Virus record (IMG/VR): IMGVR_UViG_3300020452_000254
Coordinates: 1-64,000 of that record
Strand: one strand, 5' to 3'
Length of the DNA stretch: 64,000 bases
Origin: a virus
Positions 1 through 7,333 of the stretch are shown here, one piece after another (the stretch's first letter is position 1; the number at the start of each line of letters is the position of its first letter). Under the pieces are notes generated by a model. That model ran no database searches. It was not told the origin of the DNA and saw only the letters and a program-made list of their open reading frames with translations. Position numbers and translations under genes: made by a program.

Positions 1-70
1 GTAGACATTTTGAGATGTAAGTTTTTCCACTGCCAGGCAGTCCCATAATTAAAATTGTTTTTGTTTTCAT
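1..70 (-). CDS. P-loop kinase (adenylylsulfate-kinase-like), N-terminus only; runs off the window
   Basis: Manual translation from ATG at 70: MKTKTILIMGLPGSGKTYISKCL, a hydrophobic strand plus Walker A GLPGSGKT. Confidence 0.7.
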   Translation of the reverse strand, partial: MKTKTILIMGLPGSGKTYISKCL

Positions 71-78
71 ACTATTAT

Positions 79-894
79 TTATTGTTCATCCCAAAGAGAT
101 GTTTCATCACCACGAACCACCATACTAGTTCTAAAAGGAAATTTGTTTTCTTTTGTATACTCTGCACTAGGGCCTGGATGTCTATGAGTTATTGCACCAT
201 TCATAATAACTAATCTGTTTGGTTTATATTGAATCCTTCCTATTTCATAATCGTCAGCATCTTCTGGAATACCATGATATGCATGGTCATGATATTCACT
301 ATTGTACATAATTAAATCACCACCCCAATCATCATCCCATCTTTCTTGGTCATAATATAGGAATGTTAAATTAGTTAAACAACTTTCATCTAGTCCTGTA
401 TCTTCATGTACTGTTCCATCTTGTCCTATTGTTTGTCCATTGAATCCACAATACTGGAAATAATCCCAATTAAATCTAAAGTCTTGTCTTAATTTATGGA
501 TAAACCAATCGACCATAGGAACTCTGTATCCTACATCATTAGTTCTTAAAACATTCTCTTTCCATTTTGCTTGATTGTTCCATCTAGGACTATTTTGATT
601 AGAGTATTCATAGTGTCTATCATGTCTTTGAAGTTGCCATCCTCTTTCAGTTCTGTTATAATATATTGATTCACCCCAGTAAAGATGTTGCATTTCACCA
701 TCACGAATTACTCTATTACTTCTACCCCACTTTACAGAAGACTCTCTCCATTTTCTCCAACTATACCATATTGAAGGCGTAAGATAATTATCTATTACCC
801 AACATTTTTGAAATGGTAATTTGTCTATAGGTTGTGGTTTTTGCAGATAATCGATTTGTAAAGGATGCATTAACCATTCGTAATGGTTTGACAC
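79..894 (-). CDS. 2OG-Fe(II) oxygenase (prolyl-hydroxylase-like)
   Basis: HxD (VHED), WDDDWGGDL, distal His (ITHRH) and R-x-S (FRTS) motifs. Confidence 0.8.
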   Translation of the reverse strand: MSNHYEWLMHPLQIDYLQKPQPIDKLPFQKCWVIDNYLTPSIWYSWRKWRESSVKWGRSNRVIRDGEMQHLYWGESIYYNRTERGWQLQRHDRHYEYSNQNSPRWNNQAKWKENVLRTNDVGYRVPMVDWFIHKLRQDFRFNWDYFQYCGFNGQTIGQDGTVHEDTGLDESCLTNLTFLYYDQERWDDDWGGDLIMYNSEYHDHAYHGIPEDADDYEIGRIQYKPNRLVIMNGAITHRHPGPSAEYTKENKFPFRTSMVVRGDETSLWDEQ

Positions 895-1529
895 TAAACT
901 GCCCTCTTATCCTCACCTAAATCATCTTGTCCACCCACTATGTCTAGGGTGTCTGTTTTTTCAAACCTATCATCTGACCAATGTGTTTCTTGAAAAGTTT
1001 CTTCATGTGGAACTTCTGGTATAGTATCAGCATAATGTGAAAAGTCTTTTAAATCTTCATCTAATGTTGAATTAATTTCTTCACATATTCTATATGTAGT
1101 ACCTATAAGGAAGTCATACCAATCTAAAAATCTTCTTGCAATCTGTCTTCGTGGGTCATTTGAACCCTCTCTGCCTGCAATCATTATTTCAGTTACATTT
1201 TCAAATTCAAAAAATCCAAGTTGACTCATACATTGTTTTTGTTTTTCTCTAACATTTGTTTGTAAGTCTTCAATGTATTGTTTCGACATTGTAAGTTCAA
1301 GTGGTGGTTCACAAAGTTTGATATATTCTTCAATCTCTGCACATGCTTCTGGATTTAAAGGCTCACTTTCACCATTGAGTTCAAACTCATACATGTCATC
1401 TACTGGGACAAAGAAAAGGTGGTCGTAATCAAAACCAAATTGTGGTTTATCGGTTTTATCATAATTCCAACGAAGTCCTTTTTCGTTAGTTATATGTAAA
1501 ACATTGTCGTGGTCATAAACTAATAACAT
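894..1529 (-). CDS. hypothetical protein, possibly a tail-fibre assembly chaperone
   Basis: 211-aa acidic ORF directly after the fibre-tip gene; helical C-half (ARRFLDWYD) loosely resembles fibre-assembly proteins. Confidence 0.4.
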   Translation of the reverse strand: MLLVYDHDNVLHITNEKGLRWNYDKTDKPQFGFDYDHLFFVPVDDMYEFELNGESEPLNPEACAEIEEYIKLCEPPLELTMSKQYIEDLQTNVREKQKQCMSQLGFFEFENVTEIMIAGREGSNDPRRQIARRFLDWYDFLIGTTYRICEEINSTLDEDLKDFSHYADTIPEVPHEETFQETHWSDDRFEKTDTLDIVGGQDDLGEDKRAV

Positions 1530-1568: not shown

Positions 1569-3239
1569 TTAAGGCCAGGGTTTGTTCAAATCACCATCCC
1601 ATGTAGAGACTGGTCTAGTCGAAGGTCGAGTAGAAGGTCTAGTACTTGGTCTAGTTGATGGTCTCGTTGATGGACGAGTCAAAGTCACCTCATAAGAAGT
1701 AGGTCTAGATATAGTCTGTTCAAAGTTAGCAGGTCTATTAATAGTCACCTCATAAGAAGTTGGTCTAGGTATAGTTACCTCATATGTTGTAGGTCTATTA
1801 ATTGTCTGTTCAAAGTTAGCAGGTCTATTAATTGTCTGTTCAAAGTTAGCAGGTCTGTTAATAGTGACCTCATAACTTGTAGGTCTAGGTGTCTGATAAT
1901 TAGTTGGTCTAGGTATAGTTACCTCATAGTTAGCAGGTCTATTAATTGTCTGTTCATATGAACCAGGCCTTGGTATAGTCTGTTCATATGTTGGTGGTCT
2001 ATAGTTCTGAGTTTGATAATACTGAGGTCTATAACCAGTTGACTGTGTTTGATAATATTGTGGTCTATAACCTGTACCTTGTGTCTGGAAATATTGAGGT
2101 CTATATCCAGTAGTTTGATAATTAGTAGGTCTAGGTATACTCACCTCATAAGAAGTTGGTCTAGGTATAGTTACCTCGTATGTTGGTGGTCTATAGTTCT
2201 GAGTCTGGAAGTACTGTGGTCTATATCCAGTTGTTTGGAAATACTGTGGTCTACTTCCAGTTGTCTGATAATAATTAGGTAAATTACCCCATGGCCCATT
2301 TGGATTATAAATTGGGTTGAAACTAGTAGGTGTATTTGCTAACTGAGCAGATGGTACTTGAGAATACCCAGCACCATATCCAAACTTAGGATGTCCACCT
2401 TGATATGACTGTACTTGATATGCACCAGGCCTATAATTCTGTATCTGATATGTTGGTGGTCTATAGTTTTGTATCTGATATGAAGGTGGTCTATAGTTTT
2501 GTGTTTGATAATATTGTGGTCTAGGTATAGTTTGTTCATAACTAGCAGGTCTAGGTATAGTTTGTTCATAACTAGAGGGTCTAGAATTCTGTATCTGGTA
2601 TGAAGGTGGTCTATAATTCTGTATCTGATAATTATAACTTGGTGGTCTATAGTTTTGAGCTTGGAAATTATAACTTGGTGGTCTATAGTTCTGTGTTTGG
2701 AAATACTGTGGTCTACCTATAGTTACCTCATATGAAGTAGGTCTATTAATAGTCACCTCATAAGAAGTTGGTCTAGGTATAGTTTGTTCATAGTTAGCAG
2801 GTCTACTATTTTGCAACTGTGCTGGTCTTGGTATTGTTTGTTCATAAGTTGTAGGTCTAGGTATAGTTACCTCATATGTTGTAGGTCTAGGTATAGTTAC
2901 TTCATAACTAGAAGGTCTGTTAATTGTTTGTTCAAAGTTAGCAGGTCTATTAATTGTCTGTTCATATGAAGTAGGTCTAGGTATAGTTACTTCATAACTA
3001 GAAGGTCTGTTAATAGTAGACTCATATGGTTGCTGAAAAGGTTGTTGGAAAGGTTGCTGAAAAGGTTGTTGGAAACTTTGCTGAAAAGGTTGTTGAACCT
3101 GTATAGTCCCTGTTTGAAATTCCCATCCTGTAGGAGTTTTCCTTTTTACATCAACTACTTTTTTCCAGCCAGAAGGAGTCTTGACTCTCCATCCTGTAGT
3201 CTCTTTCCATCCGCCTGGAGTTTTTACTTTTGAACTCAT
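1569..3239 (-). CDS. mirror-repeat Pro/Arg/Tyr/Thr-rich fibre protein (putative fibre tip or adhesin)
   Basis: N-terminal 3x KTPxGW, (QQPF)6, 20 RP-ended repeats, 50-aa unique centre, 20 RP-ended repeats, (STRP)5. Confidence 0.75.
   Translation of the reverse strand: MSSKVKTPGGWKETTGWRVKTPSGWKKVVDVKRKTPTGWEFQTGTIQVQQPFQQSFQQPFQQPFQQPFQQPYESTINRPSSYEVTIPRPTSYEQTINRPANFEQTINRPSSYEVTIPRPTTYEVTIPRPTTYEQTIPRPAQLQNSRPANYEQTIPRPTSYEVTINRPTSYEVTIGRPQYFQTQNYRPPSYNFQAQNYRPPSYNYQIQNYRPPSYQIQNSRPSSYEQTIPRPASYEQTIPRPQYYQTQNYRPPSYQIQNYRPPTYQIQNYRPGAYQVQSYQGGHPKFGYGAGYSQVPSAQLANTPTSFNPIYNPNGPWGNLPNYYQTTGSRPQYFQTTGYRPQYFQTQNYRPPTYEVTIPRPTSYEVSIPRPTNYQTTGYRPQYFQTQGTGYRPQYYQTQSTGYRPQYYQTQNYRPPTYEQTIPRPGSYEQTINRPANYEVTIPRPTNYQTPRPTSYEVTINRPANFEQTINRPANFEQTINRPTTYEVTIPRPTSYEVTINRPANFEQTISRPTSYEVTLTRPSTRPSTRPSTRPSTRPSTRPVSTWDGDLNKPWP
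1610..3095 (-). repeat. coding tandem repeat arrays (30-bp units with 24- and 36-bp variants; 12-bp units at both ends)
   Basis: Recurrent ggtctaggtatagt / ggtctattaat units on the + strand; repeats evident in the translation. Confidence 0.9.
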
Positions 3240-3271: not shown

Positions 3272-6200
3272 CTATGAGTATGTTATCCAGATATCACCTA
3301 CTGCTCCATCTGAACCACCTGGCCCTGCACTATGTATAAATGTATTTCTGAATGCTTTTGCACTAGCACCTATTGTTGTATAACTTGTTGTTGCAGCTCC
3401 TGTAACACCCAATGTTCCACCCACTGTTTGGTTACCACTAACTGCTAATCCTGTTAAAGTACCAACACTTGTAATTGCAGTCTGAGCTGCACCTGTTACT
3501 GTGGCTGCAGTTCCAGAAGTGTTTCCTGTGACATTACCTTGTAAGTTTGCAATTAAAGTACCTGTACTTATTGTTAAATTACCACTAGAGGCTCCAGTTG
3601 CACTTGTTGTTCCCATAACAAACTTATCTGCACTTTCATCCCAACCCATAAATGCATTTGAAGAACTTCCTCTTTCGATAATGATACCAGAATCACCAGA
3701 AGGTGAACCAGAATTACCTGTTCCAAGTTCTATAAGTTGGTCTTCAATTGTTGTGTTTGTTGAACTGTTTGTTACAGATGAACCATTAACTGTTAAATTA
3801 CCAGAAATTACAACATTACCACTTGCAGTAACATCTGTTGCAGCTATATCTGCAAAAGTTACATCTGAGGTTGTTGATACTGCCTGTCCAATACTAATTG
3901 CAGGCTCCCATCCTTCACCAGCACTACCACTTACAGTAACACCAGTTCCACCAGTAACATTGTCAACATAGTTTCCAGATGTTCCAGAACCTAATGCAAC
4001 TGTACCTACTGTTAGGTCAATTGTGTTGTCTGAATCTTGATATGTTACAGTGATACCACTTTCAGTGTTTGAACTGAACATTGCACCCACTTGGTCTGAT
4101 ACTGCTTCTGCAAAGTCTGATACTTGTGATGCAGGCATACTAATGTCTACACTAGATGCACTTGTTACTCTACCTTTTGCATCTACTGCTACTTGAGCAA
4201 CACTATTTGCATCACCATAAGTTGCAGCCGATACACCAGAGTTTGCAAGTGTAATTGGTAATGCAACATTACCTGTTCCATCAAATGATTGTGATGAGTC
4301 TGTAGTTGCATCTCCACTTACTGTAAAGTTTCTTGAAGTTGCAAGTGCAGTTGCAGTTGCAGAGTTTCCTGTTGAACTTCCAGCACTACCACTTACATTA
4401 CCTGTAATGTTTGCAACTAGATTTGCAACACCATATCCACTTCCAGAGGTGTTTACTGTTGTTGAAGGTTGTACTGTTGTATCTGTAAATAATCTAAATG
4501 TGTTATCTGTTGATGCATCAAAGAATATACCAGCATATTTTGTTGTTGATGATTCTACATACTTACCATAGAAACCAAAGTCTGTTGCATTTCCTGTATT
4601 TGCATTTGATAAACCTGTAAAGTTTGAATCTGAAACTGTAGCACCTGTTTGTGTTGTTGTACCAGAAACTACTAAGTTACCACTAACTGTTAAATCGTTT
4701 GATACTGTTACATCACTTGGTAATCCATATGTAATTGTTCCAGAACTTTCTGATACATCTACTTCGTTTGATGTTCCAGCAAAAGTTAAAGTACCACCTA
4801 GTGATACTGGACTTGTATTTGAACCATCTGAAACTGTTATACTTGAATTTGAAAGTTTTGCATTTGCAATTGAACCTGCTAACATACTGTTCTCTACAGA
4901 TGTTGCAGCTATTGTTGCAGTTAAGGTTGCACTTGCACCATTTGTTATTGTTGCACTACCAGATAAATCACCACCAAGAGTAATTGTATGGTCTGCAATA
5001 TCAAAGTCTAAAGTACCATCTGAATCGTCATAAGTAACTGCTATACCACTTTCTGTGTTAGATGTTACCATTGCACCAACTACATCTTCAACTGCTTCTG
5101 TGAAGTCTGATACTATTGTAGATGCACTACCACTTACTGTAAGGTCGATAGTTCCATCACCATCTTGATACGATGCACTGATTCCTGTTTCAGTATTACC
5201 ACTAAACATTGCACCAACTATGTCTTGTACATTTTCAGATATTAATGCAAGGTCGATTGCACCATCACCAGCATCATCATATGTTGCAGTTATACCAGTA
5301 TGTGAACCATTTGTTGCAAGTTGAGCTCCTGTTACATCTTGAACTCTTTCTGTTGTATGATATTGATTTGACCCTTCGGATAAGTCTCCTGTATCAAATG
5401 GTGAAAGACTTACTACAAGGTCTACTGTTCCATCTGCATCTTGATAAGTTGCAGTAATTCCTGTCTCAGTATTACCTGTAAACATTGCACCAGCAATGTC
5501 TTGTATATTTTCGTCTATTAATGCAAGGTCAATAGTTCCATCTGAATCTTGATATGTTGCAGTAATACCTGTTTCAGTATTACTTGAGAACATTGCACCA
5601 GCAAGGTCTTGTATTCTTTCTGCATTTACTGTAACATCACCACTTGAAACTGTAAAATCTGTTCCATCGAATGTTGCTACACCAGCATTTGTTTCTGTTG
5701 CAAGTTCAGCTGATAGAGTTGCAGTTGAACCTTCGCCTGGAGTATGAGATACATTTAATCCCTCTCCTACTGAAATGTCTGTTAAATAATTACCAGTTGT
5801 GTCTGTTCCTAATGCAACTGAGTCAGCTTGAATTGTTGTACTAAGTGATATGTTTCCAGTTCCATCAAAAGATGCAGAACCAACTACATCTCCAGCTACT
5901 GCAATAGTTCTTGCAGTTTGAAGTGCAGAAGCTGTAGATGCATTACCTACTAATGCACCTTGAACATTTGATATTAAGGTACTTGTTGCATGTCCTGTTC
6001 CACTAGTATTTACTGTGGTTGTAGGTTCTGACTGGTTACCATGAAACAATCTAAACTTATCTGATTCAGATGCATCCCATAATAGTCCTGCGTATTTTGT
6101 AGTTGAACCTTCAACATATTGACCATATAAACCAAAGTCGGTTGCATTTGCAGCGTTATCTTTTGATACTTTAACTGCACCATCTGTTACTTGTAAAGTA

Positions 6201-7333
6201 GAAGATGACACTGTAGTTGTACTTCCTTGTACTGTAAGGTTTCCAGATAGTGTTAAGTTAGTTGCACCAATATCTCCTGTGACTGTTAAGTCATCTCCTA
6301 TTGTTACATCATCTGGTAATGAAATTGTTACATCTGCTGTTTCTGAACCAGAACCAGAGACAGTAATCTCGTTTGCAGTTCCAGTTATTGATTGTACATA
6401 GTTCCCTGTTGTGTCTGTTCCTAATGCAACACTGTTAGCTGCAATTGTAGCTGCAATAGATGTGTTTCCTAGATTGGTCATCGTTGCAGAACCAGTTACA
6501 TCTCCAGTTAAAGAAATGGTAGGGTCATTCACATTGAAGTCTAGAGTACCATCTGAGTCCTCATAAGTGACTGCTATACCACTTTCTGTGTTAGATGATA
6601 CCATTGCACCAACTACATCTTGAACTCTCTCTGAGGTGTGATATAGGTTTGTTGAACCTTCTGCTAAATGGTCTGTACTTGGGTTTTCACCTATGTGAAC
6701 ATTTCCACCCATTCCACTGTGGTTTGCACAATAGTAGTAATGTGGATTCATTGCATCTTGTTCGAAACATACTTCTACATATGCACCAGCATTACCTGCT
6801 GTTCCTACTTTATTATAGATAGTTGTTCCAGCAGATATTTCTGAACCACCACCATGTGTACCATCGGATGTTGTTGAGAATCTTAAAGGATGTGATGAGT
6901 TACTACCAGCTGATTGGTCAAACCTATAAACAACATTGGGAGAAAGTTTTGCTGTTTGTTGTGAACCACCATCTAATAAGAACTTACCAGCACTTACTGT
7001 AACTACAACTTTATGGTAGTATGGTGCAGATGTGTTGTTAAGTTGTTGTTCTACTGCAAGGTCGATAGTTCCATCACCATCTTCGTAACCTACAGTTATG
7101 TTAGTTTCAGTGTTAGAACTAAACATAGCTCCCACTGTATCTTGTATAAATTCTGCTCCTACTGTTGCACTGAATGTACCACTTCCATCATTATATGAAA
7201 ATGATATACCTGTATGTGAACCAGCAGCGAACAGACTTGAAATCTGGTCTTGTATCGCTTCAATTGCACCAGTGGAATCTAGTTCTCCAGATGCATTTAA
7301 AAGGTCTGCAAGATATCTTGCTTTAGTTGGCAT
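3272..7333 (-). CDS. long tail fibre protein
   Basis: 1353 aa, G/S/T-rich; repeated ERxQDxVGAMFSSNTExGIxxTYxDxDGTIDL and SVALGTDTTGNY modules; ends GAVGDIWITYS. Confidence 0.8.
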   Translation of the reverse strand: MPTKARYLADLLNASGELDSTGAIEAIQDQISSLFAAGSHTGISFSYNDGSGTFSATVGAEFIQDTVGAMFSSNTETNITVGYEDGDGTIDLAVEQQLNNTSAPYYHKVVVTVSAGKFLLDGGSQQTAKLSPNVVYRFDQSAGSNSSHPLRFSTTSDGTHGGGSEISAGTTIYNKVGTAGNAGAYVEVCFEQDAMNPHYYYCANHSGMGGNVHIGENPSTDHLAEGSTNLYHTSERVQDVVGAMVSSNTESGIAVTYEDSDGTLDFNVNDPTISLTGDVTGSATMTNLGNTSIAATIAANSVALGTDTTGNYVQSITGTANEITVSGSGSETADVTISLPDDVTIGDDLTVTGDIGATNLTLSGNLTVQGSTTTVSSSTLQVTDGAVKVSKDNAANATDFGLYGQYVEGSTTKYAGLLWDASESDKFRLFHGNQSEPTTTVNTSGTGHATSTLISNVQGALVGNASTASALQTARTIAVAGDVVGSASFDGTGNISLSTTIQADSVALGTDTTGNYLTDISVGEGLNVSHTPGEGSTATLSAELATETNAGVATFDGTDFTVSSGDVTVNAERIQDLAGAMFSSNTETGITATYQDSDGTIDLALIDENIQDIAGAMFTGNTETGITATYQDADGTVDLVVSLSPFDTGDLSEGSNQYHTTERVQDVTGAQLATNGSHTGITATYDDAGDGAIDLALISENVQDIVGAMFSGNTETGISASYQDGDGTIDLTVSGSASTIVSDFTEAVEDVVGAMVTSNTESGIAVTYDDSDGTLDFDIADHTITLGGDLSGSATITNGASATLTATIAATSVENSMLAGSIANAKLSNSSITVSDGSNTSPVSLGGTLTFAGTSNEVDVSESSGTITYGLPSDVTVSNDLTVSGNLVVSGTTTQTGATVSDSNFTGLSNANTGNATDFGFYGKYVESSTTKYAGIFFDASTDNTFRLFTDTTVQPSTTVNTSGSGYGVANLVANITGNVSGSAGSSTGNSATATALATSRNFTVSGDATTDSSQSFDGTGNVALPITLANSGVSAATYGDANSVAQVAVDAKGRVTSASSVDISMPASQVSDFAEAVSDQVGAMFSSNTESGITVTYQDSDNTIDLTVGTVALGSGTSGNYVDNVTGGTGVTVSGSAGEGWEPAISIGQAVSTTSDVTFADIAATDVTASGNVVISGNLTVNGSSVTNSSTNTTIEDQLIELGTGNSGSPSGDSGIIIERGSSSNAFMGWDESADKFVMGTTSATGASSGNLTISTGTLIANLQGNVTGNTSGTAATVTGAAQTAITSVGTLTGLAVSGNQTVGGTLGVTGAATTSYTTIGASAKAFRNTFIHSAGPGGSDGAVGDIWITYS

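Follow-up and report, generated by a model that had tools for sequence, protein, structure and literature searches.

The stretch of DNA analysed here, referred to as the window, comprises 64,000 nucleotides (positions 1 to 64,000) of the virus record IMGVR_UViG_3300020452_000254, a 75.6-kb IMG/VR entry with an estimated completeness of 41%. On its minus strand, positions 1569–3239 are occupied by an open reading frame (ORF) of 556 amino acids (aa), with no rival long frame at this place, and an independent Tara assembly (L019) holds the identical 556-aa protein. We call it the fibre gene, in view of the genomic context described further below. Splitting the protein after every Arg-Pro (RP) yields an N-terminal arm (N arm) of 20 repeats, a unique centre of 50 aa and a C-terminal arm (C arm) of again 20 repeats, each arm measuring 202 aa, which reproduces the layout described in a first-pass annotation of the window that had been made from the sequence alone. 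The matching flanks listed in the same annotation, (QQPF)6 and (STRP)5, were found as six QQxF units in a row at aa 49–72 and as (STRP)5 at the opposite end of the repeats (Table 1).

The order of the repeats in the two arms is that of a mirror image. Counted from the centre outwards, both arms carry the same unit class at 20/20 positions, with the single 8-residue unit (8-mer) at the 13th and the two 12-residue units (12-mers) at the 7th and 8th position on either side, exactly as first annotated. This agreement was reached in none of 200,000 shuffles in a permutation test, and a parallel reading of the arms matches at only 6 of 20 positions. The content of the facing units is complementary, and the annotated pairs were confirmed by recounting: units with Glu-Val (EV) are opposite units with Glu-Gln (EQ) in 11/11 pairs, plus one ES/EV pair, QIQN is opposite QTTG (3/3) and QTQN is opposite QTQN (2/2). 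For the window protein alone, this Val/Gln (V/Q) complementarity has a permutation p of about 0.001. At the DNA level there is no palindrome at the fibre gene, the only inverted repeat being a single imperfect one of 23 nucleotides (83%), so that a DNA palindrome was rejected as the source of the mirror, as was a parallel, duplication-type match of the arms. The mirror therefore exists at the protein level only, and neither a simple duplication nor an inversion accounts for it.

Two scans of viral contigs and one scan of metagenome contigs resulted in 59 loci with 54 full ORFs, which represent 43 distinct full-length proteins of 54–69% identity. In 33 of the 43 homologues, the length series of the N arm (units of 8, 10 and 12 residues) is the reversed length series of the C arm. 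Among these 33 balanced proteins, the length series takes 20 different forms. The edit distances in a minimum spanning tree that links these forms add up to 60, so that at least about 60 unit-length changes in one arm were each answered by a matching change at the mirrored place in the opposite arm. If, by contrast, the N series of one protein is compared to the reversed C series of another, the two agree in only 42 of 1056 cases. The balanced proteins carry one to seven 8-mers and zero to five 12-mers, with extra 8-mers in the 21-unit forms, and their arms measure 198–206 residues in 33/33 cases and 200 or 202 residues in 30. That the arm length is constant though the unit mix varies indicates stabilising selection on length. 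Because the mirror rule is kept in 33 relatives while their units change, it is very probable that the chain folds back to pair with itself.

The pairing code was counted over 407 distinct repeat pairs of the family. With two exceptions, E-type units are opposite E-type units and Q-type units opposite Q-type units. The E-type 10-residue units (10-mers) form 167 EQ/EV, 23 EQ/EQ and three EV/EV pairs, and QI(QN) units are opposite QT(TG or QG) units in 57 pairs. The QxQN type of 8-mer is opposite the N(Y/F)QT type in 42/42 pairs, and the YNxQ type of 12-mer is opposite the other type in 78/78. Pair types are found in both orientations, the C arm of L005 carrying the 12-mers that the window protein has in its N arm; in a protein, this corresponds to the flipping of a base pair. 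At offset 0, unit lengths match in 100% and V/Q complementarity holds in 90% of the cases, as compared to 52–60% and 45–60%, respectively, if the arms are slid by one to four units, and to 49% and 53% if they are read in parallel. The first-pass annotation had named unbalanced arms or random V/Q pairing in homologues as signs that the arms do not pair; with 33/43 homologues mirrored and V/Q complementarity at 90% in register, this check came out in favour of pairing. The annotated facing of Asn at position 2 and Pro at position 8 extends to the whole family, in which P8 is mostly found opposite AN or AS and N8 never opposite AN.

Cross-arm covariation in the E-type pairs is strongest between positions (5,5) with Z = 67, followed by (1,8)/(8,1) with Z of about 23 and (2,8)/(8,2) with Z of about 10, and no signal was obtained for (8,8) or (1,1). 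The presence of the (1,8) and (2,8) signals together with the absence of the (8,8) and (1,1) signals indicates an antiparallel arrangement, in which i + j is about 10 within a pair. In protein numbering this corresponds to a register of i + j = 592, such as aa 226 with aa 366. The covariation is specific to the true mirror partner, with a mutual information (MI) at (5,5) of 0.57 for the mirror partner versus 0.04 between consecutive repeats. A beta-solenoid or beta-roll was rejected accordingly, as its contacts between successive repeats of the same arm are not seen and the covarying partner lies about 100–450 residues away.

The family revealed a further rule, new here, at the junctions between the repeats. 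The first residues after RP on the two arms are always heterotypic (T:A in 301, T:S in 81, T:G in 42 and P:Q in 68 cases), and T:T occurs at 0 of 523 junctions compared to 82 expected and 64–100 observed at slid registers. Read from these sequences, each 10-residue unit would possess two local dyads, one at mid-repeat and one at the P10:P10 junction, and the two arms would have to differ at both.

A low-complexity protein of this kind might also be a disordered spacer, the mirror being a mere by-product of repeat expansion. The Pfam matches of the ORF, spurious and caused by low complexity only (keratin B2, extensin), and the low confidence of the full-length structure prediction (see below) would be in line with such a spacer. 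Repeat expansion by tandem duplication, however, yields a parallel order, which the window protein matches at 6/20 positions only, and there is no DNA palindrome able to generate a mirror. The approximately 60 compensated changes, the two heterotypic rules and the slid controls need contact between the arms. We regard a disordered spacer as effectively refuted and its residual probability as very small.

For structure prediction with AlphaFold2 (AF2) we used a fragment covering aa 200–393, that is seven units per arm plus the centre, with a 33-row alignment. The fragment model has a mean predicted local distance difference test (pLDDT) score of 80.5, with 89–93 in both arms and 54–65 in the centre, and each unit consists of a 7-residue strand followed by a 3-residue break. 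Its predicted template modelling (pTM) score of 0.30 is as expected if the modelled object is elongated and not a compact domain. The shape of the model was read through fold searches, whose matches describe the shape of a model and not homology. No Foldseek match had an expect value (E) of 0.001 or better, and the best Z was 2.6 in a wide VIA search of 48,161 chains and 2.4 in a VIA search of the Foldseek list. The weak structural neighbours comprise the pore stems of lysenin, aerolysin, CDTb and anthrax protective antigen (PA), phi29-like tail hairpins and the arms of IHF/HU, and thus consistently the longest beta-hairpins of the PDB. The aligned model ranges (34..160, 40..153, 38..156 and 19..175) sum to about 194, which equals i + j = 592 in protein numbering and is thus the same register as obtained independently from covariation. 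This identity of the two registers supports a two-stranded fold-back ribbon in the model. The first-pass annotation had proposed that the arms zip into one antiparallel ribbon of 65–75 nm. Its antiparallel pairing is borne out by the homologues, the covariation and the inner hairpin of the AF2 model; its length can only be an upper bound, because every repeat contains a non-beta R-P-x break.

The same units could instead build a compact two-layer cross-beta body, in which each arm forms a meander sheet with a strand from every repeat and turns at R-P-x, the faces of the two sheets are stacked on each other with strand k over strand k, and the V/Q and T/A rules reflect complementary residue sizes in the core, similar to a steric zipper. 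A 7-residue strand with a 3-residue break fits a meander equally well, the avoidance of V:V (3/193) next to tolerated Q:Q (23) resembles a core-volume rule, and the inner repeats are rich in Q, N and Y like zipper-forming peptides. A compact sandwich of 194 residues would, however, normally score a high pTM, whereas the model has 0.30 at a pLDDT of about 90, and its nearest shapes are single long beta-hairpin stems with both arms aligned on one hairpin. In addition, P-R-P makes a poor tight turn, which counts against the turns of a meander. The strict matching of unit lengths suits a running register, whereas a stacked sandwich would tolerate overhangs, and covariation is seen on both side-chain parities, (5,5) and (2,8), as for lateral neighbours. 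Taken together, we consider a cross-beta sandwich to be quite improbable.

Conservation along the chain is symmetric. The two ends are nearly invariant, with an identity to the window protein of 0.92 (N-terminal domain) and 0.97 (C-terminal tail). Identity drops to 0.60 and 0.61 in the outer arms and to 0.48 and 0.48 in the inner arms, and amounts to 0.49 in the variable centre. The length of the centre ranges from 29 to 61 aa among the homologues; PK(F/Y)G is kept throughout and a GPW-like motif is present in all centres except the two 29-residue forms. In L006 and L037, the centre is a short PKFG turn only.

These data also bear on the question of whether the contacts are made within or between chains. 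The same repeat contacts could be formed head-to-tail between two (or 2n) chains, the N arm of one against the C arm of the other, with the centre paired to itself, which would result in a bipolar rod about twice as long or in a domain swap. All covariation evidence is equally satisfied by such an arrangement. In the AF2 fragment, however, the arms reach a pLDDT of 89–93 as a single chain, which is possible only with intramolecular pairing in the model. The centre, rich in G, P and N, variable in length and reduced to a short turn in two homologues, looks like a loop and not like a self-paired segment of a rod. Near-invariant termini and the symmetric conservation gradient fit one shared base, and it is hard to see how a bipolar fibre whose ends are identical would fit on a tail. 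Predicting the inner N arm (aa 168–271) and the inner C arm (aa 322–425) as separate chains resulted in a complex score of 0.16 (mark 0.32) and gives no verdict. On balance, pairing between chains seems unlikely to us.

We therefore favour, with a probability of roughly 0.7, a chain that folds back on itself into a segmented antiparallel ribbon, with intramolecular pairing, both conserved termini at the base and a variable distal tip. The N arm would run out from the base, the centre would make the turn and the distal tip, and the C arm would return antiparallel, with repeat k against repeat k in the register i + j = 592. Each repeat would contribute a beta segment of about seven residues (positions 2–8) followed by the invariant R-P-x break, resulting in a two-stranded ribbon that is segmented and has two local dyads in each repeat. 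At these dyads, the arms would differ by Val versus Gln at mid-repeat and by Thr versus Ala, Ser or Gly, or Pro versus Gln, at the junction. Units of 8 and 12 residues would be tolerated only opposite a complementary unit of the same length, which would keep the register. The near-invariant N-terminal domain, as a putative docking module, and the C-terminal tail beside it would come together at the base, where they would attach the fibre to the virion, and the variable tip would probably be the part that touches the host surface. Intramolecular pairing, a function of the protein as a fibre in the virion and this role of the tip are what we infer from the combined data.

The odd positions Y3, V/Q5 and I7 form a hydrophobic face of the ribbon. 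Together with the avoidance of Val:Val pairs, this face suggests that several hairpins pack together and, by analogy to other phage fibres, a trimer of hairpins would be likely. Such a trimer would be similar to the six-stranded needle of T4 gp37. In an isolated ribbon, Val:Val pairs across the strands would normally be favourable.

Several observations weigh against the fold-back ribbon. The Val:Val avoidance implies extra packing constraints, which the ribbon model leaves unexplained. Sequence covariation cannot separate an intramolecular hairpin from intermolecular antiparallel pairing, and the location in the virion is drawn from gene context. The structural support comes from predicted models, and the fragment model has weak matches throughout, with no Foldseek E below 0.03 and no VIA Z above 2.6. 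The AF2 model of the full-length protein has a mean pLDDT of 45.6 with values below 50 in the outer arms, which makes it unusable outside aa 250–340; it contains four short strands in the N-terminal domain at low confidence, and a Foldseek search with it gave nothing with E below 0.68. Finally, 10 of the 43 homologues are unbalanced or shortened.

Seven of these ten exceptions (L012, L026, L036, L044, L046, L047 and L053) were compared directly with balanced relatives, and each represents a balanced form plus or minus whole repeats, with the insertion or deletion within or beside a run of identical repeats in five of the seven. The C arm of L012, L044, L046 and L053 is identical to that of the balanced L039, as is the centre in all of these except L012, and the unit gains and losses relative to L039 are mostly found in an N-arm run of near-identical TSYEVTIPRP units. 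L047 equals L041 less two units, and the same kind of relation connects L036 to L001-like and L026 to L002-like forms. In L009 and L033, one 11-residue unit opposite a 10-mer is the sole imbalance. Logan contigs of four sequencing runs break exactly in the outer arms, and no deletion joints were seen in them. The breaks indicate that the repeats are hard to assemble; the broken contigs neither confirm nor refute variants in repeat number. Based on the C arm shared with L039 and on the breaks in the outer arms, the exceptions may be versions of balanced forms caused by assembly collapse or slippage and not independent unbalanced designs. L057 (L057:64–744) contains a complete ORF of 226 aa with the conserved termini, only 11 repeats and no centre, and was produced either in assembly, by collapse across the arms, or in nature, by a deletion through direct-repeat recombination.

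In general, known phage fibres are parallel trimers consisting of coiled coils, triple beta-helices or beta-spirals, or collagen-like stretches, with the short needle of T4 gp37 as the exception. The first-pass annotation knew of no phage fibre built on a pairing code. This holds insofar as a search of the full-text literature, including the repeat motifs, found no description of the fibre protein or of a beta-structure protein with such a rule; the fold-back itself has a precedent in the gp37 needle. According to two sources, the chains of this needle run up and back to form a six-stranded antiparallel structure in the trimer, with a receptor-binding tip and the ends at the base (PMC7291167, PMC9659904, citing Bartual et al. 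2010). The needle, with its lambda Stf-like relatives, is the closest known system by principle, sharing with the fibre protein the antiparallel out-and-back chain and a gene in a T4-like tail-fibre module. The shared topology does not make the fibre protein a member of this group: there is no sequence relation, and the needle is short, in contrast to about 200 residues per arm, 20 units, V:Q and T:A rules and compensated swaps here. The gp37 needle is held by iron coordinated by His residues and not by a code of repeats, and the window protein has no HxH motifs, His-bound metal being a trait of the gp37 type.

As a side observation, one lineage of the family (L003:6001–7689, L004:584–2275, L011:255–1949 and relatives) carries four to five 12-mer pairs adjacent to the tip with one His per arm. 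Its pairs are ..QIQNHRP versus ..QTxGHxTRP, and the window protein has Tyr at these places. If three hairpins of this lineage were to assemble, they would gather six His residues per layer, recalling by analogy the metal-binding His residues of the gp37 needle.

The stems of the beta-pore toxins (lysenin, aerolysin, anthrax PA and CDTb) and the arms of IHF/HU are the only solved shapes that resemble the fragment model, each being one long two-stranded antiparallel hairpin, onto which the two arms of the model align at mirror-equivalent residues. The likeness is one of shape only, as the scores are weak (Z 2.0–2.6, Foldseek E at least 0.03). The stems and arms have 20–50 residues per strand, lack repeats and a code, and form barrels or clasp DNA. 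By analogy of principle, heterospecific coiled coils and RNA hairpins are similar in that complementary periodic residues set the register and compensatory as well as flipped pairs occur. They consist of helices or nucleotides, in contrast to the beta segments with R-P breaks in the fibre protein.

A fibre design with a self-pairing chain and a pairing code is very probably previously undescribed. Going further, we see about even chances that the protein represents a new class of rod, in which a residue-level pairing code at two dyads per unit, together with matched 8- and 12-residue units, sets the register. Two stretches of about 200 residues each in one chain would zip together, the hairpins would pack by their hydrophobic faces into a fibre tens of nanometres long, and the arms would keep a constant, ruler-like length despite the turnover of unit types. 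The fibre protein would then add a long rod, made of one self-pairing chain under an explicit complementarity rule, to the known fibres. The rule can be read directly from the sequence and would have been tested by evolution in dozens of compensated swaps, a rare natural case in which protein contacts could be inferred as cleanly as RNA helices. If true, such a natural, evolvable and programmable beta-ribbon would be the protein counterpart of the nucleic-acid hairpin and might guide the design of programmable beta-ribbon materials and of length rulers. It would also mark out, in a widespread group of uncultured marine myophages, a fibre with a hypervariable tip that may serve in host recognition.

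Database searches did not connect the fibre protein to known families. No tail-fibre family of Pfam, PHROG or NCBIfam matches the ORF, the family profile had 0 matches at E up to 1 in all PDB sequences, and no solved structure was found for the family. Keratin_B2 (PF01500) scored 41.7 bits compared to a cut-off of 28.7 and was rejected, as no single stretch passes the cut-off and the query contains no Cys; Extensin_1 (PF02095) reached 26 bits against a cut-off of 105 and was rejected as a compositional likeness. An exhaustive HMMER search returned fragments of the family and unrelated low-complexity eukaryotic repeat proteins. Cultured phages gave no match to the DNA and none to the N-terminal domain alone, and with the whole protein a single 33% low-complexity match in Lactobacillus phage SAC12B. 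The ESM Atlas contained only unnamed viral clusters as matches, which are probably the fibre protein's own family. A word-indexed protein search had one match, P0001, a 374-aa ENA protein with peptidase M16 Pfam domains on a 1.7-kb contig, which shares 98% identity with a segment of roughly 50 residues, or about 9%, of the fibre protein and is probably chimeric.

Table 1. Parts of the fibre protein and neighbouring genes in the window.
Feature	Position	Strand	Remarks
Whole ORF, 556 aa plus stop codon (1569–1571); putative mirror-repeat fold-back fibre protein	1569..3239	-	
N-terminal domain, aa 1–46, three KTPxGW units	3102..3239	-	92% mean identity, 33 proteins
Gln/Pro-rich tetrapeptide run, QQPF-like units, aa 47–69, leading into the N arm	3033..3101	-	84% identity
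N arm, aa 70–271, 202 aa; 20 repeats ending in RP, of which 17 are 10-mers, two 12-mers and one an 8-mer	2427..3032	-	
Unique centre, aa 272–321, 50 aa, G/P/N/Y-rich, PK(F/Y)G and GPW motifs	2277..2426	-	
C arm, aa 322–523, 202 aa; 20 repeats mirroring the N-arm order, complementary unit types	1671..2276	-	
(STRP)5, aa 524–543, opposite the QQPF run	1611..1670	-	90% identity
C-terminal tail VSTWDGDLNKPWP, aa 544–556, 13 aa, nearly invariant	1572..1610	-	97% identity
1353-aa fibre-like structural protein, directly upstream of the fibre gene	3272..7333	-	PHROG tail fibre and structural protein matches; syntenic where the upstream flank is present
211-aa acidic protein, downstream	894..1529	-	In nearly every locus with downstream flank, 54–81% identity
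271-aa 2-oxoglutarate (2OG)-Fe(II) oxygenase-like protein, two genes downstream	79..894	-	PF13640 E = 9e-5, below curated cut-off; syntenic in L001–L053 where the flank is of sufficient length

The genes upstream of the fibre gene, on the same strand, encode a gp5-like hub, gp6-like and gp8-like wedge proteins and a tube cap, as well as several fibre-like proteins, including one of 822 aa with matches to distal subunits of long tail fibres. At about 42% identity, the gp6 homologue resembles the corresponding proteins of Methylophilales phage Melnitz and pelagimyophages. Together, the baseplate genes and the gp6 similarity identify the carrier as an uncultured marine T4-like myophage. The order of the genes for the 433-aa protein, the 1353-aa protein, the fibre protein, the 211-aa protein and the 271-aa protein is kept wherever the flanks reach, and both module and synteny fit a gene for a phage structural (fibre) protein.

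The 1353-aa protein contains many units of about 40 aa with the pattern (M/L)(F/V)(S/T)(S/G)NTE(T/S)GI(x)(V/A)(T/S)Y(x)D(x)DGT(I/L)D(L/F), and several PHROG structural and tail-fibre families match it in parts only. The 211-aa acidic ORF, for which Pfam, PHROGs and NCBIfam contain no family, may be considered a candidate fibre assembly chaperone. PF13640 is of the prolyl-4-hydroxylase type, and HED as well as the distal His are visible in the 271-aa ORF. The fibre protein contains more than 45 invariant Pro and many Asn residues, and hydroxylation of its repeats by the neighbouring oxygenase-like protein is a testable idea.

Codon comparison with 32 homologues revealed 386 synonymous versus 124 non-synonymous differences in the 46 codons of the N-terminal domain, and 99 versus 11 in the C-terminal tail; the N-terminal domain is under purifying selection. 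Lastly, DNA near-identical to the fibre gene is present in 20 public sequencing runs from 10 marine studies of the years 2014–2024, seven of the 20 being RNA libraries, in which its presence is not proof of transcription. Judged by this occurrence in public runs, the carrier phage population is widespread and persistent.

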